Positions 5,156-36,497 of a stretch of 64,000 nt of DNA are shown here, piece by piece (position 1 is the first letter of the stretch; every line of letters begins with the position of its first letter). The stretch spans positions 1-64,000 of the forward strand of contig KZ538400.1 in NCBI GenBank assembly GCA_000934665.2. Direction: 5' to 3'. Origin of the DNA: Catajapyx aquilonaris (Eukaryota). Both the position numbers and the translations under genes were made by a program. The notes under the pieces were generated by a model. That model saw only the letters and a program-made list of their open reading frames with translations, was not told where the DNA came from and did no database searches.

Positions 5156-7729
5156 TTAATTTTCACTCGGCACGCCCTGTATTGCCATCACATACGTCCG
5201 TTTGAGGAAGCGAACTCCACACTGCACATAGTCGACTAATTCTCGTATTGTGCCATGAAGGCTGAGGGGCCCACATGTGCGATCTAACTGGATGAAGAAC
5301 TCGCGGCAGTTGCCCTTATAAACAAGGGCATCGGCTTCATCCCATAGATCGTGACAATTCGAAAGGTACCCAAAATGCTGCGACAATTTCTGCAATGACT
5401 GATGCACTGGAAGTGGCACAGACACAGCTGGCTGGGACCCAGTACGTGGAGGGGTGTGACCAACAGCAGGTTTGGTGGTCAATTCTCCGGAGCTGTATCC
5501 AGATGACTGGCTCGACACTGAAGCAACCGAACCATATAGTGATGGGGACACTGGAGATGGGGTGCTGGTCGTGCGTGAAGACCAAGGTGTAAGCTCACCA
5601 GGTGTCTGCGCTTTTTGAAAGTAATCGCTAGCCGATTTGAGGTACTCTTGGCACTCCCCCCGACACATCTTGTACAGCTTCAGGTACAACAACGACTGAC
5701 ATCGCAATCCAAGAACAGCAAGCTTGGTGTCAATGTTGCCTCCACGCGGCACTGGCTCCTGGTGGTGGTGGTGATTCCGAAATTTTGAGCTTATGTATTT
5801 GATCAGCTCCAGAGTATCCTTGTACATTGTGAAGGCAGCCCGTTCAGTGCCACGATCCTGTTCCATCGCCTTGCCAGTCAAAATGAAGTACAGGACCGCT
5901 TCAAGGTACATCATAGCTTGGGCTGTGTGATCTGTCTCCTTGTCTGCACCATGCTTCAAATTTTTCGCTTCATTTAAATAGTGGTCCTTGTTTTCTTCAG
6001 TTAGCTCCGGACGGCGTTCAAAATAGCTGTAATAAACCTTACGAGCTTCAGGAGCCGGGCATTCAACAGGAGGTGGCTTCTGAGGTTCAGGAGCTTCAAT
6101 GGCTGTGCTTGTGCTGTCAGGCAACACTGGAGTGGCCTCACCTTCCTTTCGGCGCTTTCTGTGCTTGTCAGGATCTGGAGTCTCTTCAAAGTGGCTTGAG
6201 GCACTAGATACAGTTGAAAGGGAACTGGCACTCCGGCGTCGCTTTTTCACATCGTTTTTGGGTTTTGGAAGCTTACGTGGTTCCGGGATGTGCTTGACCC
6301 GAGACAGCTCAATCCGGCATATTAGAGACGGGACGCCTCCATTCCACACCAGAGGAGGAAGCTTTTGACTAGAAGTGTTTGGAGGAGGGGTGGGTGACGA
6401 CCAAAAATTCCTGTCACGCTTATCTAACCGGTTCTCTGGGGCAGTTGGTGGTGGATCAGGGGCTTCTGGCTTTGGTGGGTCAGGGTCCTTGCGCTTCAGT
6501 TTGTTCGAGAAGAGACGTCTGATGGTGTCTGACTTTTTGCGGTCATGACTTACTTTTGCTTCCATATCCAGCTTTGGGGGAGACTCCTCTTTCACCCGGA
6601 CTTCTGGTGGATCAGCCTTTTTACGAGTTTCACTATCAGAATCGGACCTTGTTCGCCATGCATGTTTCTCAGCAGGGGGTTCAGGCTTGGGCTTGGGCGG
6701 CCGCCCACGTTTGGATCCCGAACTTCCAGATCGCCGACGCCTTGCGTGGGGGGCCACTGTTGGTCGTGCTGGAAATTCAGTTTCAGAGTCACTGTCTGCC
6801 TTTTTGACAGCACGTTTCTTCCGCTTCACCGGTGATTCGTCCTTGGCAGATTTGTCTGAATCCGAGAAGCTGGACAGTGCTGGTTCTAGCTTGGTTACTG
6901 ACCCAACAGACACATCAGCCCCTGAATCTTCATCAGGTGCAGGGGCGGGTGGTGGGGGTGCCTCCTCTTGCCTCGGGGTCGCAAACACACTCGGTTTAGT
7001 CTGAGCAACTCCTGGGGTGCTCGAGCCTGGAGTCGACGTGTCCTTTCGAAGGAAAGAACTTAAGTCCCAACGAGGTTTGGACTCCTCAGTCGGGGGCTCT
7101 GGATTTTCTTCGCTTTCAGATGCATCGGAGCTGCTTCCAGAGTAGTTGCTCTCATCACTAGAGCTGCTCTCAGTGGAGTCCATTTTAGGGATTGGGGAAG
7201 GCGGGTGCAAAACTGACGGGGTTGGAGACACATCTGGTGGGGGTGCCGGAGCTACCGGTGGAGTCACGAAAGTAAACTTGCTACCTTCAGGATCCTTGAT
7301 TGGAGTCACAATGTTGGCAAGCAAACTACCTTTCATCTCCTGTAAGATGTCCTCCAGTTCTGGCGCATCTATCGGTGGCAGCTGTGGCTTCGGAGGCGGA
7401 GGTGCTGCTGGCGGCTTAGGCGGGCGCTGCCGCCGGAACAACCCTCCATTTGGCACCTGGGGCCGGTAGCCCGACCGCTGCATCTGCCTGGGCGCAGCAA
7501 ACTCGTCGTGGCTAACTCTGGCTGGAAGCGGGGTGGGCGGCTGCTGATCAACCCCAATCAGCCGCTTACTCTTAGTGTCGTCCAACATGAACGGTTTCAC
7601 CTGCTCATAGTTCCCAAGTGTGTGCCTTATCTGCATGGTGAACTTGTCCTCAGCTGAGGGCTTGACAATTTGAGGTGCTGAGAACAGTGGGGGGCCACCG
7701 TACACGCCGTCCTCGTCCTCCCCCGACAT
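5156..7729 (-). CDS. lilli: AF4/FMR2 family super elongation complex scaffold (lilliputian/AFF-like), single long ORF, ~857 aa
   Basis: 877-aa ORF whose first ATG is at 7729 (ACC-ATG context). Motifs in AFF order: N-terminal [35 protein letters not shown]; Ser-rich tract followed by WDLSSFL; AT-hook KRGRPPK; AF9/ENL-binding-like [12 protein letters not shown]-terminal homology domain [54 protein letters not shown]. The last few codons could be spliced differently (GTATGT donor at 5195). Confidence 0.93.
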
Positions 7730-8214
7730 GGTAACGCAGCAGGCGGCCGGGGAGAGCAAGGGGGCGGTCAAAGGAGTAGGAAAACACACTTTGGGGCGGG
7801 GATGGTTGATCTGCTAGTAACTAGTGGTAATGCTCACGAATACGTCCTCGGCCATCTTTTGAAGAAAATTCAGCCGCAATACATGTCCCACCAACTGGGA
7901 AATGCCTATTCCCAACTGTACAAGGGTTCTGGTACACCGAACGAACGTCCCCTATTGAAGGCAGAGGAGAGGGACGTCCCAACCGAGTGTCTCTTGTTTC
8001 TTGCCTTTGGCCCCCTCACTCCCTCCAGCAACCCTCACTCCCTCCAGTCTTCTCTACCACCACCTCCTCCTCCTCTCTACATCTCCTTATTCCGTTGCCA
8101 ACAGAAACTCATCACTCCGCTCCACTCCCTCCAACCCCTTCTCACCATAACCACGAGATAAAGTTCAGTCACCTCCATCCTCGAAATCCTATTGGTGGTG
8201 ACTCAGGTGGCTGA

Positions 8215-12132: not shown

Positions 12133-12240
12133 TCACCATTCTGCATCACCATTAGCCTTCTGGAACACATAGTCCTTCCCATTCAAGTTCATGATTCCAT
12201 CCTTCAGGTGGAACTTCCATTTGTTTCGACTCCTTGTAAT
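12133..12240 (-). CDS. TfIIA-L: TFIIA large subunit terminal exon
   Basis: tttcag|ITRSRNKWKFHLKDGIMNLNGKDYVFQKANGDAEW* is the hallmark TFIIA C-terminus; too short to appear in the ORF track. Confidence 0.97.
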   Translation of the reverse strand: MTRSRNKWKFHLKDGIMNLNGKDYVFQKANGDAEW

Positions 12241-19447: not shown

Positions 19448-19675
19448 CTTGTCATACTGGCAGACAACAACATTATCTGTGTCGAAGAGCTCAGTAGGGT
19501 CATCTTCACTGACGTCATCTTCCGAATTGAGAGGCTCCTCCTGTACACTGAATTCAGACTCTTCTTCATTTTCATCCTCATCCTTATCATCGTTTTCGTC
19601 CTCCTCCTGATCATCTTCATCATCCTCCTCCTCCTCTTCATCTGAAGTGTCTCCACGAGGGCCATCCAAGAACCC
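19448..19675 (-). CDS. TfIIA-L: TFIIA large subunit exon with cleavage-site region, acidic tract and start of the beta-barrel
   Basis: gccag|GFLDGPRGDTSDEEEEED...EEPLNSEDDVSEDDPTELFDTDNVVVCQYDK|gtacag; 228 nt, phase 0-0. Confidence 0.95.
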
Positions 19676-19752
19676 CTGGCATGGAAAGAATTATAGTTAC
19701 CAGTTCATTTGCATACTGGACAACTCAAAATATCCAAAAATGGTTCCCACTT

Positions 19753-19880
19753 GGGGGAACAGTGGTCTAGTGGCTATGTTACTGGCCAGCCAAGCGGGAG
19801 ACCAGGGGTTCAAATCCCGTCCCCGTCACCTTCACTTGGTCAGGTCTTTTCCCACTTTTCACCCAAGTATCCAGGTTAGT
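19753..19880 (+). mobile_element. Degraded tRNA-derived SINE head; related copy at ~39280-39375
   Basis: A box TGGTCTAGTGG, B box GGTTCAAATCCC; downstream body shared with the second copy. Confidence 0.6.
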
Positions 19881-20269
19881 TTGGTTCGAATTTCATTGCG
19901 ATATCTTCATTAGTTTTAAAGTTATTTCAAAATGCCTGGTAAAATAGCTAGTGGGACACAGTGTATCATTGCAAGTCACTTGCAGGCATAGTGCTGGACA
20001 GTAATGGTGTCGTACTGTGGCACCATGAGGCACTGGTGACAAAAGAGTGAATTGAAGTGATGCATTGGCTGCTAATTCATCATTCTGATTAGCTCTTTTG
20101 CCACCATCAGCACGTGGCGCCACCAGTACACCATTAATGTCCAGCACTGTACAACGTTAAACAGTTCAGATTTTAAGCAACTTAGTGTGTCTATGGTCCT
20201 TTCGTCCGGTCGCTCCCTTTCCCAAATTCAAGACTTGTGGGATGAACTTTTGGACATGACTATGCAAAA

Positions 20270-20640
20270 TAAAAATAGCCCAATAGCCGGTGAAACTGCC
20301 GAAAACTATTCTTCCTCTGGGTGAGATTAAAAGTAAGAAACAAGTCCATGGGTGGGGATTGGTTCGAGTCATGGGGATGTGTGATAATTAAATTTAATTC
20401 AAAACATTCGTGCTTTGGGGCTGGGAAGAATTAGGCAGATATCGCTTTTATGTACTTCTCCGACTCTCATACTCTGCCTAATTTTTCCCAGCCCCAAAGC
20501 ACGAATGTTTGGAATTAAATTCAATTATCACACATCCCCATGACACAAACCAACCCCCACCTATGGACTTGTTTCTTACTTTTAATCTCACCCAGAGGAA
20601 GAATAGTTTTCAGCAGTTTTACTGGCTATTTTTACTTAAT
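20270..20640. mobile_element. Palindromic MITE
   Basis: Arms ~20290-20445 and ~20470-20620 are reverse complements. Confidence 0.8.
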
Positions 20641-21516
20641 TCTTTTCATCATCATAATAAAGTAATGTCAAGATATTTTAGGTTCTTTAAATAACACGAC
20701 GTCGTGCCTATTTCTGTGGTACAGAAAGAGAGCAAGAACCACAAAACTGACACTATCGAAATCGCCTCGTAACTCAAAAAATTATGTTTTTTTTTTTCAA
20801 AAAACGGTAGGCAGAAGGGCACCTCCTAGGAACATTGCGGTTCTAATGACACATTGCATGACCCTCTACGACGCACCGTTTAGGCTGTACCCTTGTCGAA
20901 GATACGACACATTTTTGAACTTTGACCCCGGCTAGTGACACCGGTAATGACCCAAGTCGTTGTCAATCTATTTAAAGTTGGTTACAGGAGTTAGCGGAGT
21001 GTAAATCTTGTTTCCGATTTGAAATCGGTTAACCCAATCGTGAGTTATGAAGTCGAAAAATTAACATTGGGAGCATAGCGATTCCATACTATTCCTTTTC
21101 ACTGGCCCTGCATGGAGGAAGAATAGAAATAGTAACTCCACAAAAGTAACTGCCATGCATGTTGATGATAACCCCCACGTTTAGCTAGCCCGAGCCAGTA
21201 TTTAAGATGGACTGAGAGTGTCTTCATGGTCATTCGTCAGTAATCCTCCACATCATCCTTTACAGTCAGCCATTCCATGTTGACCTCTCACTCTTCTAAG
21301 TGAGGCTGTGGCTGTCTGCCATTGGGGTTGGGCCTGACCCCCAATGTGCAGCCAAATCTACCTTTCAGGCTCCATTCCAAATTGTGTGGCAGGGTTACCT
21401 TGGGCTCCATTTCCCCCAGTCCCTATTATGCCCTTCATTGTGTTGCCCTACCTTACCCTTGGGTTGTGGCCAAGTCCCCCCTCCCATCTGTCTGAACTTC
21501 ATTGTTGGTCATATTT

Positions 21517-22142
21517 GAATACATGAATTTCCAAAGGGCCCAAGTCGTCTGTTTGGGCAAAACTGAGGTAAGACCGGAGATCTGTTCACAGTACCGGGCT
21601 GCATATGTATGCTGCATAGGAAGGCCCAAGTCCCATAAGAACAGGAGGAAAATGGCATTGGGAAATTTTGATGTTTGGTAGAAAGGGCAAAACATATTGT
21701 AGAACGACTGGCAGGTGGCGATAGTGGGAAGCATGAGCTGGGTAAGTTATTAGCTGCATGAAAGGACATCACAAAAACAGCAGGTATGGCCTGCAGTAGT
21801 GCCTGCAAAATATGATTTCATGATGTCCATGTACTGCACAATGCATTAGCAGGAGGTATTGACTGCAATATTAGTCTTGGAATGCTGAGGCTACCTCTTC
21901 AGGATTCCATATCCACTTAATGTTTTTCCAAAGGACCCAAGTCAGGCCCTTAATTTTATTTATGATTAGCACACTGTTCGTCGTATGGTGTTAATATTGC
22001 TTCAACACAACCGATTTTAGGTATGGTTCATTGTGTTAAAATCCCAACTGCCAGGCAGTAATTTTGTTCTGTGGCATCGTTTTTTCCTTCTCCTGGAAAT
22101 TTCATGTTGCCGGACTTGGGCCCTTTGGAAATTCATGTATTC
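21517..22142. mobile_element. MITE with 30-nt TIRs and 4-bp ATTT TSD (Sola-like)
   Basis: ATTT|GAATACATGAATTTCCAAAGGGCCCAAGTC...GACTTGGGCCCTTTGGAAATTCATGTATTC|ATTT. Confidence 0.75.
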
Positions 22143-22495
22143 ATTTAATAAAACAAATCTACACCACATTGAGTGTCTCACTGACCACCACTACCTGATG
22201 ATTCAGCACAGAGGTCTGCCTGATAGTCCTCTGGAATTGGCCTTCATGGCACCCGAGAGTTTGGTTTTCATGAAGAATCGTGAGAGAAGCACAGAGGAAG
22301 GGTGTAATTGGACAATGAGAGGAAACACGAGAAACCGCTTATAAACCCTGCTCATCCCCTGTGAAGTCTGGCAGCACTTCTTGTGCAATGGACCTAGAAA
22401 GGGATTTCCTGTGTACTGAATGCCCTGAGGCAGGACACAGTGGTGGGTCGGCCAGGATTACAGAAATTGCTTACCCATGTGATACAGAGACATAC

Positions 22496-22579
22496 CATTT
22501 TTATAGCAAGCCATCTTTCTGGGTCGATAGATTTCATAAGCTTCATACCAGCACGATCGTTACAGTAAACGGGTGGCAT
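22496..22579 (-). CDS. Candidate TFIIA cassette exon F: MPPVYCNDRAGMKLMKSIDPERWLAIKM
   Basis: 67-nt intron from exon E ending ccctctccttccccag; 84 nt open in phase 0; donor ATG|gtatgt (an alternative in-frame TGG|gtaagc donor lies 21 nt further). Confidence 0.5.
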
Positions 22580-22646
22580 CTGGGGAAGGAGAGGGTGATA
22601 GTTAGCCCAGAATTAAAGCAATTGAAAGCAAAAGTTAGAGACATAC

Positions 22647-22724
22647 CTCGAATGAAACTTCAATCTCCTCCTCCTCCTCCTCCTCCTCATCCTCCTCCTC
22701 ACCAGCACCCTTCAAGGTCTTACT
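22647..22724 (-). CDS. Candidate TFIIA cassette exon E: SKTLKGAGEEEDEEEEEEEEIEVSFE
   Basis: Acceptor region homologous to that of exon B; 78 nt open in phase 0; donor GAG|gtatgt. Confidence 0.6.
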
Positions 22725-22798
22725 CTGGGGGAGAAGAGGGTGATTGTTCAGCTAGAATTGTAGCAGATGAGTGCACAAGAGATATTTAATCACAATAA

Positions 22799-23185
22799 AC
22801 CGAAGCAGTAGTGGTGGAGTGGATATGGTGTCCGACTGCTAATCGGGAGGTCCTGGGTTCAAATCCCGGAGGCCGGCGATCCTGACCTTGGTTTTCTGTG
22901 GTTTCCCAAGGTCGCCAGAGGAAAAATTCCGGGATCATACCGTAAAATAGGCCACAGCCGCTTCCTTCCATTCCCTGCCCTGGAGGAGGTGCGGTGTCAG
23001 TCCCCGGGTTTCTGACTCGCATCCAGGGGGTCATCTTGGCGAACGGGCCCCCTGAGAGACTGCACACGACCCCCAACCTGAGACATTGCACATGCACCAG
23101 TGTCCCTCCCTCATTATCCCTGCCCTGTCCCCTGCACCGATGGTGGTATCCCACTCCCCTAAGAGGGCCCTATCACAGGGTATAA
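22799..23185 (+). mobile_element. tRNA-SINE family 2; copies at ~35445-35650, ~37340-37525 and truncated ~39598-39670
   Basis: Head ..GACTGCTAATCGGGAGGTCCTGGGTTCAAATCCC, core GGTTTTCTGTGGTTTCCC..AGGCCACAGCCGCTTCCTTCC, A-rich tail. Confidence 0.85.
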
Positions 23186-23395
23186 CAAAAAAAATAAAAA
23201 ATAAAACAACAACACCACCACCATCACGACATTTCCCTAAGTCAGCGATGACGGGAGACACAAGCTAACCCAAAATATGAACGAAATTAAAACTTGTAAA
23301 AAACAGTCTATAAATGTGTAATATAAGTCTACGATCTCACCTGTTATTTTTGTGGGAACACCAGAGGTAATAACTATTTTCATTTTAAAAAATTA

Positions 23396-23991
23396 CAGTA
23401 AAACTTCCATAAGTCAAACTTCCCTAAGTCGAAGTTCTCTATAAGTCGAAGAAAATGATGAGCTTGGTTGGTCACAATGTAAAATAATAGGAAATAAACT
23501 TCCCTAACTCGAATTTCTATAACTCGCACTTCTCCATAACTCCATAAGTGCAGGTAGGGCCTTACGATGGGATATCAATGCATTTTCAGTCTCCCTAAGT
23601 CAAAGTTCATGTTGGCGAGTGCAGAAAATTTTCTCATTTCCCAACTGAAGGGTCGAGAGTAGGCCACATGTACAGAAAGGCTCAATTTCCTCATCTCCGT
23701 CTACCAGATGTACCGAAAGAAGTGTTTGACTCGATTTTGAATCCTTGAATCTAAGAGTAGGCAAATGTCCATCACAGAGATTTTTTTTTACACCAAAACA
23801 ACGAGGAACATTGTAAGTGTGATATTGACAGTTATTTTTAAGTTTTGAACACCTTTCGTCGCTGGATATAAAGGTAGTCTTCCTTATAGAGTTCTATGCC
23901 TTAAAAAATCCAAACTTCTCTAACTCGAATCTTCTATAACTCGAAGTTTTCCCCCGGTCCCATGGAGATTCGACGTATAGAAGTTTTACTG
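23396..23991. mobile_element. pogo/Tigger-type MITE; partial copies at ~35662-36030 and ~58897-58975
   Basis: TA|CAGTAAAACTTC...GAAGTTTTACTG|TA with internal TAAGTCGAA repeats. Confidence 0.85.
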
Positions 23992-24073
23992 TATTTCATT
24001 AAAGGACATTTACATTAATTTTTGGGGGAAATGAAATTGCACTTTTTTTCACTATTGACCCATATGTAAATAC

Positions 24074-25131
24074 CAGTGCCGGTGAAAGACTTGGTGTGGG
24101 TGTGGAGCACTCCCCACCCGAATGATTCCTCATGGGGAAATTCCCCACCTGAAAATTTCCAACCGTTTTGAAACGAACAATGTCGCAGATCATGTTTTTC
24201 AAACCCCAGAAGAAATGTATCATGCAAAATATTTTGAAGTTCTTGACCAAACAACTACATCGTTGAAAAGTTGAGTCGACAACAAATCGAATAATTTTTT
24301 TTCAGTCTTTAGAAGCGTTTGCTATTGGTATTGATAAGCCCAAGGACATGAAGAAAATTGTCAATTTTTACCAAGGTGATTTCGATGAAGATAGATTAGA
24401 TGAAGATTGTAAATTGTTTTTGAGTTTATTGCTTTAAAAAATGAAAAATTCGAAAATTTGAAAGATGAGGTGAATTTTTTGCACACAGAAAAATGGAGTC
24501 TAGGTATCTTGCCTGAATACATTCGATTCATTATATTGCTATTGACAATACCAGGCTCGTCATGCACAAATGAAAGCTGTTTGGTCCTGAAACGTCTGAA
24601 AAATTATCTTCGAACGACGATGTCCCAAAATCGATTGAACGACATAACAAACAATGTTGCATATTTATTCCGAAGAGGTCGACAAACTTGATGATGAACA
24701 GGTAATGGACGAATTCATGTCTAAAAATTCAAAACGCAGTTTTGTATTCGCACTTTCTCGCAAATAAATGAAAATCATTTTTGGTAATATTGCTCTTACT
24801 AATTCAGTGGTTTCCAACCTTTTACCAACTGCGACCCCCTAATCATGTTTCCATAAATGTGCGACCCCCCCCCCCCCTCAGCCCCTTCTACAACTGCCCC
24901 ATTTCCAGTAAACATACATTATGTACGGCCGCAAAAATGGTTTCATTTACACAGAAATTGTACAAAAAAAAAGATTAACAAAGGCTCGCGACCCCCAGGT
25001 TGGAAACCACTGTACTAATTTATCCCATAACAATTGCACTTGTTTCGAATTTCGAAAATGAGATCCCCCCCCCTCGGCCCCTCCCCTACTTGTTACTCAC
25101 CACCCGGGCTGAATCTGTTTCACAGGCACTG
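24074..25131 (+). mobile_element. Internally deleted hAT transposon with a transposase C-terminal (dimerisation) remnant and a nested hAT MITE at 24805-25012
   Basis: 8-bp TSD GTAAATAC, ends CAGTGCC/GGCACTG; peptide LLLTIPGSSCTNES..LKRLKNYLRTTMSQNRLN; the inner element has TSD TACTAATT and CAGTGGTTTCCAACC TIRs. Confidence 0.9.
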
Positions 25132-25616
25132 GTAAATACGGTAATAGGTGTTGTGACCAGCCTGCTCAATCATATCTGGAGTACTACTGTGATCCTATCC
25201 CGTAGGTGCTGGAGATGCTGAATCTTTTCACCATACATGTATCTCCACAAATAAGTCCATCAGGGTAAGATCTGGGCTTCTGGGGGCCCAGACATGGGGA
25301 AACTTCTCATTCAAGACTTCACACACTGGGAGGCAGAACATATAAAACTTTCATATAGCAGGTCTGTTTCATGGATGAGGCGACATTTTATGTGCATCAT
25401 CAAGAACAATGTGTACGGTGTAAAGACCCATCATCTCCAGCACCTACGGGATAGGATTGCAACGGTAACGCCAGATATGAATGAGCGAGTTTGGCACGAG
25501 ACCGAATAGTGTTTTTTATCTGCTGAGCAACAAATAAAGCTCATATCGAAACAAACTAAGGTGAGACCACAACTTCAGACATTTCTTAGCATTTCAAAAC
25601 TTGTATCATTAAGATA

Positions 25617-26409
25617 CAGTCGAATCCCTCTATAACGAATCTGGATATAACGAAAATCCGCTTATAACGATAGAAAATTTGTGACCGTCAGAGGCCCCAT
25701 ATAAACCCATGTTAAAAATATCCGCTTTTAACAAAAGGATTTTCGGTTTCGGTTCGCATGTATCGAAAAATCTTCGCTCCTCCAGTCCCACCTCTCCGCC
25801 GAAAAAGGGTGGAAGTTGGCAAATTGGGCTATAAATCACCATCTGTGTGGTTGGGATTCAACCTTTTTTCACACATTCCCACCAAGAGTTGATAATTTGG
25901 GGTCCTAATGGAAGGGAATGGATTCTCTGGGAGGGGGGAGGGCTGTCATGCAGTGACTCACTGTCAGAGCTGCCCACTGGATTTACTGCTAGCACGTGGC
26001 CCCCCCAGGGAAGGAGGCAGGTGGTTAAAACCTGGGAAAATTCATAGGAAATTTGAGCAGCAAAACGAATCACATCTGGAAAGGAATTTCCGGACGTGGA
26101 CTGATCATATGCTGCCTAAATGGTGGGATGAGGGCGCCAGCGGAAAAGGAGAAGGGCCGCCTGGCCTGCATCTGGTGCAGTCCTCTGGTGTTTGCTGTAA
26201 CTTATTGTTATCGCGTTTGCGCCATGCTTTGCGAGATAATCTAATTTAGTGCAGAAATTTTTTTTAACTTTTTCCCGCTACCAGGGCTTCATATAACACC
26301 TAAATATCGAAAATAGTGAGGTTTAAATGCGGTTTTTTATATAGCGAAATTCGCATATAACGAAAGAAAATTTGGTTCCCTTCAATTTCGTTATAGAGGG
26401 ATTCGACTG
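25617..26409. mobile_element. pogo/Tigger-type MITE nested in a mariner remnant (~25150-26472)
   Basis: TA|CAGTCGAATCCCTCTATAACGAA...TTCGTTATAGAGGGATTCGACTG|TA; host peptide IKNNVY..LQHLRDRIATVTPDM..VW. Confidence 0.85.
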
Positions 26410-26556
26410 TATGTCTACAAGTATTTGAGTTATAGGATTTTAAAATCTGAGCATTCTTTTTCGATGACCCTGTATTTAAAAAATGAAGGGGGGAGTTGGT
26501 TGAATCGACTATTCCTGGCTACTCGACAACATTGAAAGCAAAAGTTAAAGGCATAC

Positions 26557-26655
26557 CCTGTCTGCACCACGCTGCCTTGATTTACGCTTAGAATCTGCTT
26601 CCTTCAGAGCTGCAAAAAATTCTTCTATAGTCGACTCAGTATAGCTGTCTGTGCT
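26557..26655 (-). CDS. Candidate TFIIA cassette exon D: STDSYTESTIEEFFAALKEADSKRKSRQRGADR
   Basis: 67-nt intron from exon C ending cttcctctccctccacag; 99 nt open in phase 0; donor AGG|gtatgc. Confidence 0.6.
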
Positions 26656-26722
26656 CTGTGGAGGGAGAGGAAGATGGTTCACTCAGTGTTTCAGTAATTG
26701 AAAGCAAATGTTACAGGCATAC

Positions 26723-26803
26723 CCTGCCAGCAGCACCCTGCAATGAAGCGTCTTCAGAAGCTACATCCTTCTCCATAGCAGCACCAGTCAAGATGTTCAT
26801 TCT
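26723..26803 (-). CDS. Candidate TFIIA cassette exon C: RMNILTGAAMEKDVASEDASLQGAAGR
   Basis: 58-nt intron from exon B ending ctcctcccgcag; 81 nt open in phase 0; donor AGG|gtatgc. Confidence 0.6.
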
Positions 26804-26861
26804 CTGCGGGAGGAGGTTCACTCAGTATTGCAGTAATTGAATGCAAAAATTAGTGACAAAC

Positions 26862-26942
26862 CTTGTCTGCATTACTCTGCCGTGACAACCATTTAGAGGC
26901 ACTATCCTCCTTCATAGCAGCACCATTCATGATGACTGTACT
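26862..26942 (-). CDS. Candidate TFIIA cassette exon B: STVIMNGAAMKEDSASKWLSRQSNADK
   Basis: ccctctcctcccccag acceptor, 81 nt open in phase 0, donor AAG|gtttgt. Confidence 0.6.
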
Positions 26943-27227
26943 CTGGGGGAGGAGAGGGTGATTTTTTGTTCAACTAGAATTATAGCAAATAAGTGCATAA
27001 GTTATGTTGAATCACAGTAACCATAGCACTGAAACAGGGCCAAGTTTTCCCTCCTTCCAAGGTTGCAATCATGATTGTTAAACTCATGCGGTGGTACCGT
27101 CCCCTATCAATGATACTGACTTCCAGTACTTAAAAAAATAAGGGGAGAGGTGGTTGAATTGACTATCCCTGACCACTCGACCCCACGTTCAGTGCTAGTG
27201 TTAGGCTGATTCGAGTATACTACATAC

Positions 27228-27311
27228 TGTGTTGATATCATACAGCAATGACAAGGTCTCTCCAACATATCCATCTTCCTGGGCAAAAGAACCATCCAGG
27301 AGGTTTGCACT
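27228..27311 (-). CDS. Candidate TFIIA cassette exon A: SANLLDGSFAQEDGYVGETLSLLYDINT
   Basis: Pyrimidine tract ctttctcctctttcctcag, 84 nt open in phase 0, donor gtatgt. Confidence 0.6.
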
Positions 27312-28466: not shown

Positions 28467-28794
28467 CATATTTTTGTCGGTAGTGGCAGGTTGCATAAAT
28501 GCTTGATAGATGATCCCTCTCTCCCTGAGGGCTAAGTTGATCTGTTGCTGCAATGCAGCACCAGCCAATTCCACTGGAAGGGAAAAGGTGGCTGCCACTG
28601 ATGGATGGGTCAGAACAGCTTGAAGTTGGTTTCCCTGTAGAGCAATGGCTGGGACGTGAATTGTGAGGGCCTTGCTGGGGCGGTTAGTTCCTGGCTGTGC
28701 CGGAATTGTTATCTGAACTGGTATCATCCGGTTTGGATCTGTTATGGCCAGGGCAGGTGCAAGAGACTGGCTTGGGTTGGGCACATGCAGCTGC

Positions 28795-28841
<47 letters not shown>

Positions 28842-28909
28842 CTGTTGCTGCATACCTGGCTGGTGGGGCTGTTGAGAGGCCTGAAGCTGCTGCGATGCGT
28901 TAGTGTGCT
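28467..28909 (-). CDS. TfIIA-L: TFIIA large subunit exon 3 (polyQ linker and arthropod-type DPNRMIPVQITIP...LTIHVPA..LQGNQL..LQQQIN segment)
   Basis: tttttcag acceptor at 28910-11; phase 1 completes the Lys codon from exon 2; contains a Q20 tract; ends ...TTDKNM|gtatag (phase 0, weak donor). Confidence 0.85.
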
Positions 28910-29199
28910 CTGAAAAATGCAAGGAAACCTTTCAGTTTACATTGCAATGACACTTTAGCACGTATAATAAGACTTGAGGGTGAAGAAGGACTGAACATCT
29001 CGTTTATTGCGGGGTTGCTTTTATATACAAAAGGGGAGGACGCTAGTGTGCCCGTTCAAGGGCAACTGGACAAGGGCATATCCTTTTTCTGGCTTGAAAG
29101 TCTGAAAGGGTGCATCCTGGTTGCAAATTAACTTGTCCTTGTGGTCTAGACGGACTGGCTGGGAATCCGGATGAGAATCCGGATGCCACCACATTAATG

Positions 29200-31106
29200 C
29201 CCCCCTCTGGTGCTGGCTGCTCCTCAGTGAAGGCTTGCTTGAGGCGGTCGATGGAGATTCTCTTCTCTCCCACCGGCACTGTGAAATGCTTGTCGTTCCT
29301 CTCAAGGACAAGATATGGCCCGTCGTAGGGTGGCTGAAGGAGTCTGCGGGTGGCATCGTGTCTTACAAAGACATGTGAGGCTGCACGCTGTCCCGGATTG
29401 ATGAAACAGGGCATTGGCCAGTGTCTGGAGACCGGTTTTGGCCTGATGTGCCGGAAGAGTTCCCGAAGTTGGCTGGCGTGGGTAGGGGCTCCAACCTGCG
29501 ACGATGACGGCTCGAAGAACTCTCCGGGCAAGTGTAGTGTCGTGCAGTACGTAAGCTCGGCACTGCTGGCTTCAAGAGAAGGACCAGGGGCAGGATGTCG
29601 ACCCAATTCTCCCGGTTCAGCTGGGCTTGGAGGGATGCCTTCAGCTGACGATGAAATCTCTCCACCATGGAGTTGGCCTGCGGGTGGTACGCGCAGGTGC
29701 GCCTTCTCTCTATTCCAAACAGTCTGAGGAGTTGGTGATGGAGGTCCGACTCAAACTGAGTACCGCGGTCCGTGGTGATGCAATCGGGACATGCGAAACA
29801 GGCGATCCAAGTAACGACGAAGGCCCGTGCAACGGTCTCTGCCAAGCTGTCGGGAATCGGCACCGCCTCCGGCCAACACGTAAACCTGTCAACGAAGGTC
29901 AGCAGGTACTTGTTGCCATGTGATGATGGAAGGGGGCCCACGATGTCTAGGTGGATGTGGCGAAAGCGGTCATCGGAGGGGTGGGAAAGTGGAGAGAGGG
30001 GCAAGGGTGTGCCTGTGGATCTTAGCTTTTTGGCAGCTGGAGCAGGTACGGACCCATCTCTTGATATCCGCTTGCATGCGGGGGCAGATGTCCCGCTCCG
30101 AGATGAGCCGCTGGGAGGCGCGGATCCCGGGCTGAGCCAGGCTGTGCAGTTTGTCAAAGATGGGACGCCGGAAAGGAGGCCGGGGGTACAAAGGGGCAAT
30201 GACGACCTTGGGAGGTGTCACGTATGACGGACAGGCTGGAGACAGGAATAGGGAAGGCTTGGAACGTGCAGCTAGTGCCACCACGCAGCAAGGTCTGCAG
30301 CTCCTCGTCCATCTCCTGGGCCTGGGCGATGTCTGCATCAGTGATGGCATCCACTGTTGCCAACACGGGTCGGGACAGGGCATCAGCTAGGGTGTTGTCA
30401 GTGCCAGGGATAAAACGGAGGTCTGTTGTGAATTCTGATATGAAGGTGCTATGGCGGCATTGGCGGGGAGAGAGTTTGTCATTGTGGGTACGGAAAATAA
30501 AGGTTAAGGGTTTGTGGTTGGTGAGGATGTAGAATGGGCATCCTTCCAGCAGGTGTCGAAAATGTTTGATGGCAGAGTATATGGCCAGCAGCTCTCGGTC
30601 GAACGAACTGTACCGAGATTAGGACGGGGACAGCTTCTGTGTGAAAAATCCAAGCGGGAGCCACTCGGCTGCATGCAGCTGCTGCACAACGGCGCCAATG
30701 TGGACGTCGGAGGCGTCGGTCATCAACCTCGTGCGGGCATCGCCACATCGCTGCGGGGGTGTGTGAGGAGAGTAGCGTCGGCCAACATCTGTTTGATGTC
30801 TTGGAATGCGGAAGTTGCTTCGGGTGTCCACGTGAGCTTTGGAGAGGCGCTGTTTGCAAGGTTGTGTAAGGGGTGGAGGATTTTGGCAGCGGCGGGAAGG
30901 AACCGGTTGTAGAATTGAATCATGCCAAGGACACGTTTAAGCTGGGGTCTGGTGTAAGGTGGGGAAATGTTGTGGATGGCAGAGACTTTGCATGGGAGGG
31001 GGCAGATCCCTGCAGGGGAGATGGTATGTCCTAGGAACTGGAGCTCTTGTTGGCCAAAGATGCACGTGTCTGGGTTGATCTGGATATGGTGTTGACTGAC
31101 AACCAA
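29200..31106 (-). pseudogene. Gypsy pol remnant (RT C-terminus, RNase H, integrase), frameshifted; protease and RT core missing
   Basis: CIFGQQELQFLGH..LGMIQFYNRFLP; LMTDASD..GAV; HLDIVGPLP..ITTDRGTQF..ANSMVERFHRQLK; LQPPYDGPY, distributed over different frames. Confidence 0.92.
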
Positions 31107-31383
31107 AGTAACTCTTCTGACCCTCTTGAATTTTGAAAAAATTTGGATTATCTAATTCTGCTTGGCCTATGGTGTTGAGAAAACATCACCTCCGCTGCTA
31201 ATTTGTACATTATCAGGGTGAAAATAGAGCCAAAATGTGATGTTCCGAAGCTACAACACCTGCATCTGGTCACGAGTCGCTAGTCCCGGCTTCCCGGCCG
31301 TGGTCGCCTTTCACCGCGTCTGTAGCGCTCTCTGGTGCTGCGAAGGAGAAGGGTCATCTCGCACGCTTTGAAGTCGAAGGCGA

Positions 31384-32151
31384 TTATAATAAAGGAGAGC
31401 CTCCATTATTATAATCGCCTGCGACTTCAAAGCGTGCAAATGACCCTGGCGACTGCGAGGGCTGCGGGGCCAGTAACTGACTGCGAGAGGGCTGGGATGA
31501 GGCCTGTCGGTCAGTTTTGGGCTGTCGTCGGGGGTCATCTGTGGCTGGGCGGTGGGCCGACAGCCGACTGATTGCAGCGGTGAGCTCGGACACCTGCTGC
31601 TGGAGGTCCTGGATGGCGCAGGCTTGGTCCAGGGCAGAGATTGCCGCAACAGATGGGAAGGGTCGGGCAGCATCCATCAGCCTGTTGCCTGCCTCTGTCA
31701 GCTGTGCGGTCGACATGGAATCAGGAGAACCCGCCAATATGGTTCGGACCTGCTGTGGAAGTCGTCGTAGAAACAGCTGCCTGATGAGTGGGTTGTCTCC
31801 GGCAGGTTTCCCCAAGAGCTGCTCCATGTGTTGCAGCATCTGGGATGGGCGCTGATCTCTCATGCCCAGCTCCTGAAGTAGCTGCTGGAGGCAGTGGGAT
31901 TCTGTCGGAGTCGTCCGGCTGATGAGTGCAGCCTTGAGGGCCGTGTACTGGCCGGTCACGGGAGGGTTGATCAATACGTCCCGGACTTTTGTGGTGATCT
32001 CAGGGGCCAGACAGGCTGCCACATGGTGGAATTTGGTCTGCTCTGTAGTGATGGAACGGATAGTGAACTGGGCTGCAACTTGGGCGAACCACAAGTCGGG
32101 GTCCGCTGGCAAGAAAGGAGGCATCTTCAGTGCGATGGTGGCTTGCTCCAT
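31384..32151 (-). pseudogene. Gypsy gag, 3'-truncated
   Basis: KMPPFLPADPDLWFAQVAAQF..ITTEQTKFHHV..YTALKAALI..RPSQMLQHM..LFLRRLP. Confidence 0.9.
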
Positions 32152-32591
32152 GTTGCGGGGCGGCGTGAAGAAACGTCGGGGTCACCAGTCTAGCGCGTAT
32201 AATAAGACTCGAGGCTGAAGAAGGACTGAACATCTCATTTATTGCGGGGTTGCTTTTATATACAAAAGGGGAGGGCGCTAGTGCACCCGTTCAAGGGCAA
32301 CTGGACAAGGGCATATCCTTATTCTGGCTTAAAAGTCTGGAAGGGTGCATCCTGGTTGCGGATTAACTTGTCCTTGTGGTCTAGACGGACTGGCTGGAAA
32401 TCCGGGTGAGAATCCGGATGCCACCACAACACATTACATGTTCATTAGAGCATTTGATGGGGGAGGGGGGGGGGAGGGGAGGAGGAGGAGGAGGAGAAAT
32501 TACATGAGAGGATATTCCCAACTACACTTAATTAAAATATGAAAGCTGACACAACACCTATGTCGAGTAAGATAACATCCTGTATACTGTA

Positions 32592-33535
32592 CAGGGTGGG
32601 CGAAAAGTCCCAGGACACCTGGCTTTTTTTGCCTGCAAAACAAATCTGTGCATGGAAAATGTGTTGGGGATGATGGTGTGACATATTCTGGACACTGACG
32701 GAACTGTTTGATGAGGGGAGACGTCTGGGGACCCCCAACAACACCCACAGTAAGTTAACACTGTTAACAGTGCAAGATGGCAGATACGAGCGGGTTCACT
32801 GTGGAGGAGAGACTTGTGGCTACTGTGTGGGTCCACGGGAGGCCTCATACGGGAAAGAACATAACGCACATAATGCAGGGTATCAGGGCTCCTTTTGGTA
32901 AGGTGCCACCGAGAAGAAGTAACTTGAACAAGTGGGAGAAAAAAGCATTCAGCATGGGAAATGTGAAAGACACTTCCCTTGCTAAATGTTTTTTATGGGT
33001 GTTGTTGGGGGTCCTCAGATGTCTCCCCTCATCAAACAGTTCCGTCAGTGTCCAGAATATGTCACACCAGCATTTCCGACACATTTTCCACGCACAGATC
33101 TGTTTTGCAGGCAAAAAAAAGCCAGGTGTCCTGGGACTTTTCGCCCACCCTGTACTATACAGGGTGGACCAACTTCAAGTGTCGTTTTATAACGGCTATT
33201 AATAGAAGCGCTTTACGATTGACGTAGCAGCGATGCGTAAAATGGCCCACTTCGGCGCCATCGAGAATATTAGCTGTTTCGTTTGCAGGCTTCCCCCTTG
33301 CATTACAGGCCCATCTGGTGTGTTGGGCGTCACCCAGGCGCATCGCAGGTCATGTGTGCACCACCTTTTTTCCAGGTCAACCCAGCAGCAGGGTTGATTA
33401 CATGTGTGCTGCTATTGGCAGCTAATATTTTCGATGGCGCCGAAGTGGGACATTTTACACGTCGCTGCTACGTCATCGCAAAATCACTGCTATTAATCGC
33501 CGTTATAAAACGACACTTGAAGTTTGTCCACCCTG
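32592..33535. mobile_element. Two adjacent mariner-type MITEs (32592-33152, retaining a transposase 5' remnant; 33160-33535)
   Basis: TA|CAGGGTG..CACCCTG|TA ends on both; peptide MADTSGFTVEERLVATVWVH..FGKVPPRRSNLNKWEKKAFSMGNVKD. Confidence 0.88.
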
Positions 33536-36289
33536 TATTGCTCAAAATCATCTCTGTTTTTGAGCAATATAGTACAACATCTACTGTTAAAATCTCCACC
33601 CACAGCCTTATCTGAGTGTAATCTACTCTGGACATCTGACCACAATAACTGGGTGGGTGGGTGGGGGGGGGGGGGAATCAGACACCTGGCTAGACACAGT
33701 TATCAGGTGGAAGTTGTGCACCTTGGTCGGTTGGGTGGCGATTGGAGTAGAGGAGTGGTGGGGTAGTGGAGGGGTGTAGCAACATCACCGCCCCTTTGAG
33801 CGCCTCTAGCGGCCAAATGGTTTGTCAGAGAAAACCACCACATGGCTCATTCGACTCAGTTCATGAACCTCTACAGTCTACAACATATAGGCTATTAAAA
33901 TGAACCCAATAGGAGCCACCTGATATTCCGACTTTGAGCGCCTCTAGCGTAGATTTCCTTCAGCCTTCAGAACAATTGACCCTAAGGTCAAGGTGTATCA
34001 ACTGACTAAGTTTCATCGAAAGGTTCAACTTTTGCCATAAGGACCCAACCATATCCTTTAGTGTTTGCTTAAAATGGGTGCGTGGGGGGGGGGGCGACGA
34101 CATATCCGTAAATATCATTCCCTTTTCCCAATTTGCATTTTCAGTACGGTACAGGAAGTCCCTGGTGATCGGTACTTACGAACGGGCTGCCAAGGCTCCC
34201 TATATAAATAATTTATAATACCCCTCCACTCTCAATCACTTCTGCATAATATGCAGAAGTGATTGAGAGTGGAGGGGTAATTATGTTGACCAACACCATG
34301 TTCAACATAAATACTGTATAATTTAGAAAGAATTCCAAATCTGCTTCATTCCGCACCTGTAAACAAGTCCACATTCTGACTTAAACAGTTCGTTGGCACA
34401 GCATCTTTATGCTAGCAGCTATTATTTATATTACCGTGTGTGCAGTTTTCACCAGGGACCGAAGCAGGTTGTGTCACGAGTGACATTTGACCAGTGGCTT
34501 GTCCCTCGGACCGAGTGTGATATTTTTTGCTACCTGACCTTGCTAGGCCAGGAGGTGGCTTTTGGAGCCAACGGAGCAATTGTGCTCAGTGAACGCTGGA
34601 GCGGCTTGTGATAGCTTGTCTCTTTTTGGGGGCTCACCTGAGGACCTGTGATGGCAAATCTGCTAGGGATCCTCAGGTGAAGTTGGAAGTGGGTTGTACG
34701 TGGGAAAATTATACACGGGGCCTTTACACTCTTCTCATTGTGAGTGAGAGCACTTCCTTTTTACGTGGGAAAATTGTACACGTTCATTTACCCCCCCCCT
34801 TCCTAGTGTGGATGGGTTACTTCTCTTTATTTGAGAGAATTACGCTATGGAAGCTTCATCTTTTTTTGGGAATGTGTCATTCCTTCTGGTGGTGAAATTG
34901 CACCAACTCGAAGAAGCATTTGGTTTGATGCGTAGAGAATTGCGCATCTAAAGCATACTTCGAAGTTGCAACATCGTCCTTATCCTTTTGGTAAATTCGA
35001 CGTGTGGTTCCGGTTACGGGATCATCTATTCACCCAGGAGAATTGTACCTTGGTGTTCACCAGTGAGTGAGTGCTTAGTGTCATTTGTTAACTCCATTTG
35101 GCCCAGTGCAAATTGTGGCTTGGAGTTGGAAGCAAGTGATTGTGCTTCCGTACGCGAAGTGATTTTTCTTGGCTGGAGCCATGTAATATTGGATTCTCAT
35201 TGTGAGTATTTTGGTGTGATCATTCAGGCTTGTTCGAGTTGTAAGTCCATCCTTCCTAGCCGTCCATTTACCCTCCTGTTTTTTTGTGAACCTTAAGTTT
35301 TCTTTTGAAGGCAATGTTCCTCCTCTCGCCTGAATTGTTGTGGTGATAATAAAATTGTACTTTTCGTAATTAGCACTCTTAGTATGTTCTTCTCTGCTTG
35401 ACTTGTGAGGTCGATATTACCCTCCTGAAAATTGTCTTCGTGACAGGTTGGCATGATGGATAAGGCGTCTGACTGATAATTGGGAGGTCCTGGGTTCGAA
35501 TCCTGGGGCCGACGATCCTGACCGTGGTATCTGTGGTTTTCCACTGTCTTCCTAGGATAATTCCAGGGTCGCTTCCGTATAATAGGCCACAGCCGCTTCC
35601 TTCCTACCCTATCCTTGGAGGTTGATGAGGCAATGCCGGGTCAACCTCCCTAATATCAATTACAGTAAAACTTCTATAAGTCGAACTTCCCTAAGTCGAA
35701 GTTCTCTATAAGTCGAAGAAAATGATGAGCTTGGTTGGTCACAATGTAAAATAATAGGAAATAAACTTCCCTAACTCGAATTTCTATAGCTCGAAGTTCT
35801 CCATAACTCCATAAGTGCAGGCAGGGCCTTACGATGGGATATCAATGCATTTTCAGTCTCCCTAAGTCGAAGTTCATGTTGGCGAGTACAGAAAATTTTC
35901 TCATTTCCCAACTGAAGGGTCGGGAGTAGGCCACATGTACAGAAAGGCTCAATTTCCTCATCTCCGTCTACCAGATGTACCGAAAGAAGTGTTTGACTCG
36001 ATTGTGACAATTGAATCCTTGAATCTAAAACTGCCCAGCGTGCCCATGAGTTAAGACAACATGAGTACAACAATAAAATGTAATTATGCCCCTAATTGTA
36101 ATGTAGTTAAATACTAGGTAGACACTCATACAACCCCTAGCATATAGAGCCCTTGCTTGGTGGCACTTGTCTCTCCCCAGACCACCCCAGCTGTCATAAA
36201 GCACAGTCACAATAACATGTGCCGCATGCCTTTACAATCAGGTTTGACTATAGTAGTCCTACTTGCAAAGAGAAGAAAAGGAAACATAC

Positions 36290-36497
36290 TTGCAGAGGTG
36301 TGGTTTCCTTGGTGTCCCGGAACTTGAAGATGATCATGCTGATGATCAGCATTGGGTTCAATGGCTTTGCTGCTCACCAACTTTGTCTCCCAAATCTGCT
36401 TTAATTCTAGTAAGACTTGTTCATCAACCCCTTCATCCAAGAAGCACTCTCGGACACCATTCACCACATCTTCTATCACACTTCGATACATCTTTGG
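36290..36497 (-). CDS. TfIIA-L: TFIIA large subunit exon 2 (conserved region I helices)
   Basis: ttccag|PKMYRSVIEDVVNGVRECFLDEGVDEQVLLELKQIWETKLVSSKAIE...HTSA-A|gtatgt; phase 0 to 1. Confidence 0.95.

Follow-up and report, generated by a model that had tools for sequence, protein, structure and literature searches.

We describe here six exon-like units, A to F, in the Catajapyx aquilonaris gene that encodes the large subunit of TFIIA, a general transcription factor, found on the minus strand of positions 1 to 64,000 of contig KZ538400.1 (GenBank assembly GCA_000934665.2), a stretch of 64,000 nucleotides (nt) that we call the window. The units are 78-99 nt long and lie between the middle exon of the gene and its acidic exon, here named K, just upstream of the predicted processing site. 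The reading that we favour, with somewhat better than even confidence, is that they make up a linker array of locally duplicated, optional exons, whose inclusion would alter the linker and not the place of cleavage, and that none of them carries a site meeting the published rules for the protease Taspase1. A first-pass annotation of the same DNA, whose positions and peptides for the units and K we recovered in full (minus strand, translations exact), had proposed that the cassettes may be degenerate copies of the cleavage-site exon start, through which splicing could choose whether and where TFIIA is processed.

Six exon-like units upstream of the processing site

The gene was recognised by matches to the Pfam family PF03153 on three exons and by a tblastn exon map, in which the closest protein found (P0001, 339 aa) located four conserved exons (Table 1). 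All six units have lengths that are multiples of 3, and frame 0 is stop-free in six of six and is their only open sense frame; given a mean of 2.0 stops per unit in the other two sense frames, six open frames would be expected by chance with a probability of about 6e-6. Because the unit bodies have diverged by 35-68%, these open frames are not merely inherited from recent copying. CAG acceptors stand behind C/T-rich tracts in all six units, and the donors read GTATG in five and GTTTG in B. Three of the intervening introns are short (B-C 58, C-D 67 and E-F 67 nt), while A-B measures 285 nt and D-E 3832 nt. Relative to B and C, unit D has an 18-nt in-frame insertion, and the peptide of unit E consists of SKTLKGAG, a run of 12 acidic residues, which takes in a (GAG)8 stretch, and a final IEVSFE.

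Units A-F are probably real exons of the disordered linker, and probably optional ones. Most likely, each exon that is included would lengthen the disordered alpha-part tail, shortly before the cut, by 26-33 residues, and its inclusion would alter the length and charge of the linker, not the place of cleavage.

Table 1. Exons of the TFIIA large-subunit gene in the window, with units A-F and the elements associated with them, in the order of transcription
Feature	Positions	Strand	Length	Remarks
N-terminal-domain coding exon (PKMYRSVIEDV...)	36289..36497	-		tblastn with P0001; preceded by acceptor ttccag
Middle exon	28467..28909	-		poly-Gln, then ...ITDPNRMIPVQITIPAQ...RERGIIYQAFMQPATTDKNM; donor ATG/gtatag at 28467/28466
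Unit A	27228..27311	-	84 nt, 28 codons	begins SANLLDGSFAQED; LLDG 27302-27291, AQEDGYVGET 27284-27255
Unit B	26862..26942	-	81 nt, 27 codons	begins STVIMNGAAMKED
Unit C	26723..26803	-	81 nt, 27 codons	begins RMNILTGAAMEKD
Unit D	26557..26655	-	99 nt, 33 codons	basic stretch SKRKSRQR
Conserved post-donor element GTATGCCTTTAACTTTTGCTTTCAAT	26531..26556	-	26 nt	directly behind the donor of D; near-identical copies behind B, C and E
Copies of the post-donor element	B 26836-26861, C 26697-26722, E 22621-22646	-		4 matches against 0.41 expected
Unit E	22647..22724	-	78 nt, 26 codons	begins SKTLKGAGEEEDEEEE
Unit F	22496..22579	-	84 nt, 28 codons	flanks shared with the family
Orphan intron-like copy after F	22427..22495	-	69 nt	ends cctgcctcag; repeat-family D2 copy 22424-22492
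Acidic exon K	19448..19675	-	228 nt	starts GFLDGPRGDTSDEEEE; FLDGPRGDTS at 19672-19643; Asp-Gly processing site (cleavage predicted)
Last coding exon	12133..12240	-		ITRSRNKWKFHLKDGIMNLNGKDYVFQKANGDAEW, then stop; tblastn (12240-12136)

A tandem family with conserved flanks

The units resemble each other more in their flanks than in their coding parts. When the units were aligned with MAFFT, together with 70 nt to either side of each, their mean pairwise identity was 70% over the 45 nt preceding the acceptor, 48% within the exon and 70% behind the donor. Flanks and body parts of the units are grouped in repeat families D2, D3, D4 and D6. Leave-one-out nhmmer searches, each with a profile of the other five units, recovered A (E 1.6e-6), B (3e-25), C (8e-26), D (2e-18) and E (4e-17); for F such a profile recovered only the shared flank and not the body, which is 32-42% like the others, and F belongs to the family via its flanks only. 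The nhmmer match of the F unit extends to 22426, across an orphan acceptor that stands behind F without a matching exon or donor.

These relationships show a tandem family, which arose as an exon was duplicated locally, more than once, along with the flanks that hold its splice signals. The A-B intron aligns at its 5' end with what follows D and at its 3' end with what precedes E, so that in one step or more a block of exons was copied, A-intron-B corresponding to D-intron-E; the D-E intron was later enlarged by insertions.

Since the units form a tandem family, the start that units A, B, C and E have in common (Leu/Met-x-Gly-Ala/Ser-x4-Asp) is paralogy within the array. It reads L-L-D-G-S-F-A-Q-E-D in A, I-M-N-G-A-A-M-K-E-D in B, I-L-T-G-A-A-M-E-K-D in C and T-L-K-G-A-G-E-E-E-D in E. 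The first-pass annotation had aligned these four units and K directly from their acceptors; the shared start of the four stands, but the register needs shifts, as the motif has its Gly at residue 7 in each of A, B and C, at residue 6 in E and at residue 5 in K. The poor fit of D and F, which that annotation had conceded, was evident here also.

Candidate Taspase1 sites

The rules against which we read the sites are those of the human enzyme. Passages of PMC3102056 report, from a cell assay, that cleavage requires Asp at P1 and Gly at P1', that it depends critically on a P3 Gln, being blocked by Ala or Asn in that position, that P2 has to be Leu, Ile or Val and that Asp stands in at least one of P3' and P4', giving a refined consensus of Q-[I,L,V]-D/G-x-D-D; an excerpt of PMC4905357 gives the motif as IXQL(V)D/G. 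Portions of PMC5668323 place the human TFIIA site at QVDG 272-275, tie its cleavage to proteasomal degradation and describe roles in spermatogenesis and head formation. What the first-pass annotation had taken as established about Taspase1 and TFIIA agrees with these parts of the three papers.

The site in K occupies the homologous place in the protein to the TFIIA alpha/beta processing site, and it shares with the Taspase1 sites of human TFIIA alpha/beta and MLL a hydrophobic-Asp-Gly core, G-D-T-S and an acidic run; its downstream G-P-R-G-D-T-S is similar to the G-P-H-G-D-T-S of parasitoid-wasp homologues. It differs from the human sites in having Phe at P3 and not Gln (G-F-L-D/G-P-R-G-D, 19661-19672, with Leu at P2 and Arg and Gly at P3'/P4'), and its cleavage is predicted. 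P0001 reads T-Q-L-D-G at its site, with about 16 further preceding residues that K lacks. Counting the motif upstream of an EEPLNS anchor, we found Q-x-D-G kept in 184 of 190 homologues, 120/120 from a first search and 64/70 from a second, the latter having yielded 140 new proteins, of which 70 contained the anchor with 50 or more residues ahead of it, while 26 were dropped as too short and 44 as anchorless. Non-Gln sites are rare (6/190) but not unique, and the exceptions include N-L-D-G, K-L-D-G and V-M-D-G. Ant isoforms (P0099/P0101/P0103 and P0051/P0052) show a difference of one Gln about 8 residues before Q-L-D-G; this difference resembles the outcome of a tandem acceptor and suggests for ants, too, an acidic exon that begins a few residues ahead of the site.

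Among the cassettes and the constitutive exon K, only A and K keep Asp-Gly, as had been noted previously. Unit A in fact has two, LLDG at codons 4-7 and a second, earlier unnoticed, QEDG at codons 11-14. The first (N-L-L-D/G-S-F-A) has Leu at P3, with Phe and Ala at P3'/P4'; the second (A-Q-E-D/G-Y-V-G) has Gln at P3 and Glu at P2, with Val and Gly at P3'/P4'. The P1 residue is Asn in B (MNG), Thr in C (LTG) and Lys in E (LKG), and Asp-Gly is also absent from D and F. A P3 Gln and a hydrophobic P2 occur together in no site of K or of the units, and Asp at P3' or P4' is absent in K and in both sites of A.

No unit, then, appears to carry a site in keeping with what has been published on Taspase1 specificity. 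A weak case for an alternative site might be made for QEDG of A, and outside it decoy or alternative sites find no support in the peptides. The suggestion that splicing selects the place of the cut or adds decoys is not supported by this comparison, given the P1 residues of B, C and E and the departures from the rules at both sites of A. We note that the sole other Q-x-D-G on the gene strand within the gene lies in an intronic frame (21456-21746, minus strand; E-V-Q-T-D-G-R-G-D), which is flanked by repeats and scores 1.0 bit with the site profile; it is probably due to chance.

Points against the linker array

A number of observations count against the reading of the units as optional linker exons without a usable site. 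Their use as exons is deduced from the DNA sequence alone, and the open-frame argument is somewhat weakened by one antisense frame that is open in 4/6 units. Between B and C there is no sign of purifying selection on residues (nonsynonymous divergence, dN, 0.51; synonymous divergence, dS, 0.32), and the differences by codon position number 11, 10 and 7. A cassette-like insert is absent from P0001, the closest relative, and a search with the stop-to-stop frames that contain A, B, C, D and F found no protein at E <= 10 among 908 candidates, unit E having been excluded from the query for its poly-Glu words. With respect to cleavage, many insect homologues have G-P-L-G-D after the cut and also break the P3'/P4' rule; the rules of the human enzyme may not transfer, and QEDG of A could still be cut.

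The failure of the protein search to return anything cassette-like, the lack of the units in P0001 and the missing sign of residue-level constraint between B and C would also suit a different explanation, namely that the units are unused as exons and represent an exon-like intronic tandem repeat or the relics of a dead array. The body of F, unlike the others and an odd reading for a disordered linker, may be cited in the same sense. We consider this explanation unlikely: it would have to accommodate a frame 0 that is open in 6/6 units and lengths that are all multiples of 3 in spite of the body divergence of 35-68%, and splice signals that are better kept than the bodies, a pattern that fits selection for splicing.

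Relation of the array to the cleavage-site module

Descent of the array from the cleavage-site module, with splicing selecting whether or where TFIIA is cut or providing decoys, makes a statement about DNA that can be compared with shuffled controls. An nhmmer profile of the six units, run over both strands of the whole window, had as its top non-member match the 5' end of K (19671-19608), which agrees with such a descent. The match starts 4 nt into the exon, near the register of the first-pass annotation, with E 1.3, 2.4 bits and a bias of 4.9 bits; in leave-one-out profiles its best E was 0.66, and it was lost when A or E was omitted. Smith-Waterman comparisons of the K acceptor flank and exon start with each unit were judged against 1000 shuffles (of dinucleotides in the intron and codons in the exon). 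With 60 nt of exon only E stood out (p 0.015; maximum over units p 0.016), its p falling to 0.001 under lenient gap penalties, and with 27 nt of exon, which excludes the acidic run, no unit stood out (p of the maximum 0.32). The score of a 5' profile against the K 5' end was reached by 117/1000 shuffles, and there was no match without E or without the acidic run. When K was added to the unit alignment, 51.8 columns were identical compared with 46.8 +/- 3.2 after shuffling, and 12/200 shuffles reached the real value; a tree of the units and K (60 nt of flank and 78 nt of exon) had support for 0/4 inner branches. The DNA-level signal is confined to the GAG-rich acidic run of E. Of the nucleotide or profile similarity to the K 5' end that was called for as a check, the tests show K as the best non-member match; nucleotide and flank likeness without the acidic run is not above controls, and the descent is not shown at the level of DNA.

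A candidate sign of shared ancestry, the equal 3049-nt spacing of tRNA-like short interspersed nuclear element (SINE) heads upstream of K and of E, was rejected as coincidence, the stretches from SINE head to acceptor of K and E being identical at 25/85 positions and 2220/8891 other offsets being as good. The two heads (19761-19819 and 22810-22868, plus strand) are 73% alike over 59 nt, and each lies 85 nt upstream of its acceptor; ARAGORN called no tRNA at either.

For the protein comparison we used a hidden Markov model (HMM) of the site module of other species, built on 24 columns around the Asp-Gly in 119 homologues and independent of the DNA of K itself. Among the 2141 stop-to-stop frames of the window it placed K first (E 4e-4). 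The score of this HMM on the individual peptides was reached by 984 residue shuffles for B, 386 for C, 1235 for D, 375 for E and 1077 for F, each of 2000. In hhalign, units A, B, C and E, taken jointly over their first 20 columns, scored 10.7 against the site module, Gly on Gly and in the register proposed earlier, a score reached by 0/200 column shuffles. When E was left out, the register shifted and 4/100 shuffles reached the score; the corresponding counts were 1/100 for A alone, 57/100 for B and C, 81/100 for D and 37/100 for F.

Unit E was also compared with the site module of P0001 (SSGVVTQLDGAGDTSDEEDEDEEE), LKGAGEEEDEEE... being aligned on LDGAGDTSDEED..., such that LKGAG and acidic residues face LDGAG and acidic residues. 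The score was reached by 0/2000 full shuffles and, when permutation was limited to the first eight residues so that the acidic run stayed intact, by 41/10080 arrangements. The DGAGD form of the site is present in 9/190 homologues, including molluscs, a damselfly and a stick insect. As the start of the units fits this P0001 form of the module (Q-L-D-G-A-G-D-T-S-D), best in E, the array may have been founded by a copied 5' end of the acidic exon. These tests of protein likeness were, however, chosen post hoc, over six exons and several targets, and A and E match the site module in two different registers. The acidic run of E could equally stem from a B/C-like AAG-GAG-GAT via repeat slippage. Compared with the six peptides, the linker of P0001 was matched best by F, with p 0.038 among six tests.

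We regard the likeness to the cleavage-site exon as suggestive and as limited to the peptides of E and A; the DNA tests do not show an origin of the array from the cleavage-site module, and B, C, D and F show nothing of the kind. That the founder was a copy of the acidic exon 5' end is a possibility we place rather below an even chance; the more probable alternative, to which we lean, is that it was an ordinary linker exon and that the likeness reflects chance and the GAG repeat. The fuller proposal, in which such a descent provides splicing with a choice of cut or with decoys, is in our judgement quite unlikely. It gains from the joint alignment of A, B, C and E, from the comparison of E with P0001 and from the doubling of the module elsewhere, with two or more Q-x-D-G in 26/190 homologues; it loses from the disappearance of the K match once E leaves the profile, from B and C alone, D and F, which contribute nothing, from the lack of Gln-hydrophobic-Asp-Gly in every cassette and from the choice of patterns after the data had been seen.

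Exon A as a possible second site module

Alternatively, exon A on its own might be a true second, upstream site module comparable to those of beetles, in which case, the constitutive site having lost its P3 Gln, inclusion of A would give the protein its only Q-x-D-G. Here the site-module HMM scored 5.7 bits on the A peptide, reached by 5/2000 residue shuffles, and the piece matched was GSFAQEDG on nniaQLDG, that is, the second Asp-Gly and not the LLDG that had been aligned previously. The frame containing A was second of the 2141 frames, behind K, but with an E-value of 4.6 and a small lead over the next frame (4.2 against 3.1 bits). QEDG of A is the only Q-x-D-G within the TFIIA exon frames, hhalign of A alone gave the 1/100 mentioned above, and beetle sites with a non-hydrophobic P2 exist (Q-T/S/A/H-D-G); the P2 of A is nevertheless Glu, its P3'/P4' are Val and Gly, and six exons were tested.

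Proteins with two modules do occur among TFIIA large subunits (TFIIA-L), with a second Q-x-D-G and acidic residues 20-60 residues upstream of the canonical site. They include proteins from many beetles and one locust, examples being Onthophagus, Nicrophorus, Anoplophora, Sitophilus and Schistocerca (the whole set being P0039, P0057, P0064, P0067, P0069, P0070, P0075, P0079, P0080, P0087-P0090, P0094, P0095, P0097, P0102, P0105, P0111, P0113, P0114 and P0189). In these proteins the upstream Q-x-D-G is often succeeded by a piece resembling I-E-I-E-F and by a basic stretch. We found no paper on them, no literature search having been aimed at them. A comparable arrangement would result if exon A, with its AQEDG, preceded K. 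A profile of the beetle upstream module does not single out A or pick any unit, E being the highest at 5th among 2141 frames with an E-value of 11. A comparison of the six peptides with 29 two-module linkers gave p 0.013 for each of B and F; it was rejected, the level being distrusted and the F match plainly irrelevant.

On balance we hold it fairly unlikely that A is a second site module. A more elaborate version, in which the constitutive site has lost its Gln and the optional exon A, bearing A-Q-E-D/G-Y-V-G-E-T as a relic of a duplicated site module, would decide the alpha/beta split via splicing, strikes us as very unlikely. We continue to prefer optional exons that would change the linker.

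Comparison with other tandem exon arrays

Arrays of tandemly duplicated alternative exons are known in arthropod Dscam1, Mhc and 14-3-3xi, and in Dscam1 and 14-3-3xi pairing between docking and selector sequences is a mechanism of exon choice. The TFIIA array is itself a known kind of arrangement, adjoined in this instance by an atypical TFIIA processing site. It resembles those arrays in its adjacent, related exons of the same phase, its conserved intron flanks and its introns of 58-67 nt, but differs in that its units fall in a disordered linker and not in a folded domain, are unequal in length and have bodies that diverge faster than their flanks, and in that we found no docking/selector pairing.

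The 26-nt element behind the donors of B, C, D and E invites the idea of a mutually exclusive cluster, in which the element would pair with a docking site and thereby select one exon. We give this hardly any credence. The complement of the element is absent on the pre-mRNA strand, 4/4 matches being the elements themselves; duplex energies with the two long flanking introns were no better than those of 40 shuffles each, and the best duplex positions do not coincide. Lengths of 78-99 nt, and bodies only 32-65% alike, likewise speak against an exchange of one exon for another.

Isoform pairs of Hymenoptera were considered as a parallel to the cassettes and discarded, because what sets them apart is a difference near residue 78 and a single Gln close to the site, and not cassettes at the site. 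Literature searches returned no paper on tandem exon duplication in TFIIA or on isoforms of GTF2A1 in connection with Taspase1.

Remainder of the gene and its neighbourhood

The N-terminal exon matches PF03153 at 36291-36497 (minus strand) with 78.4 bits (cut-off 36.2) over profile positions 2-60, which is the start of the profile; as it begins behind an acceptor, the exon with the initiator Met must lie further upstream. Exon K alone scores 26.8 bits (profile positions 326-380), and a protein search with it gave 803 homologues at E <= 0.001, the named ones being mostly insect TFIIA-L. The last coding exon scores 82.1 bits at 12136-12240 (minus strand; profile positions 381-415, the profile end). 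The middle exon has 76% identity to P0001, and a protein search with it returned P0001 and P0121 only. Its 5' end is uncertain, with the acceptor at 28909 or 28889, and would be of phase 1 or phase 0, respectively, while the N-terminal exon ends in phase 2. This mismatch of phase implies at least one small unseen exon within the 7.4-kb intron (28910-36288, minus strand). Hymenopteran isoforms vary by a cassette of 12-17 residues at the same place in the protein as this intron.

Long introns, tRNA-like SINE heads and retroelement frames mark the window as animal DNA. The 7.4-kb intron contains retroelement remains, an integrase core domain (PF00665, 48.6 bits) and DUF7041 (99 bits), at 29363-30217 and 31384-32181 (minus strand), and the stretch from 28 to 32 kb of the window is rich in G+C. 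In the F-K intron, at about 20310-20620, there is a long, near-perfect inverted repeat of foldback or MITE-like (miniature inverted-repeat transposable element) type. The neighbouring gene downstream, on the same strand, is an open frame of 885 codons (5156-7813, minus strand) that encodes an AFF4 C-terminal homology domain (PF18876, 176 bits).

Implications

In mammals, according to portions of PMC5668323, Taspase1 cleavage of TFIIA controls its turnover and tissue-specific transcription. A coupling of TFIIA cleavage to alternative splicing in an arthropod, if true, would represent a new regulation of a general transcription factor. The atypical site of K, moreover, prompts one to ask if the rule of a P3 Gln extends beyond mammals. 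The gene of a general factor seems here to have grown a six-unit exon array in a disordered linker, beside an atypical processing site, and with splice signals kept better than the coding sequence this array offers a good case in which to study the beginnings and the decay of tandem exon arrays.

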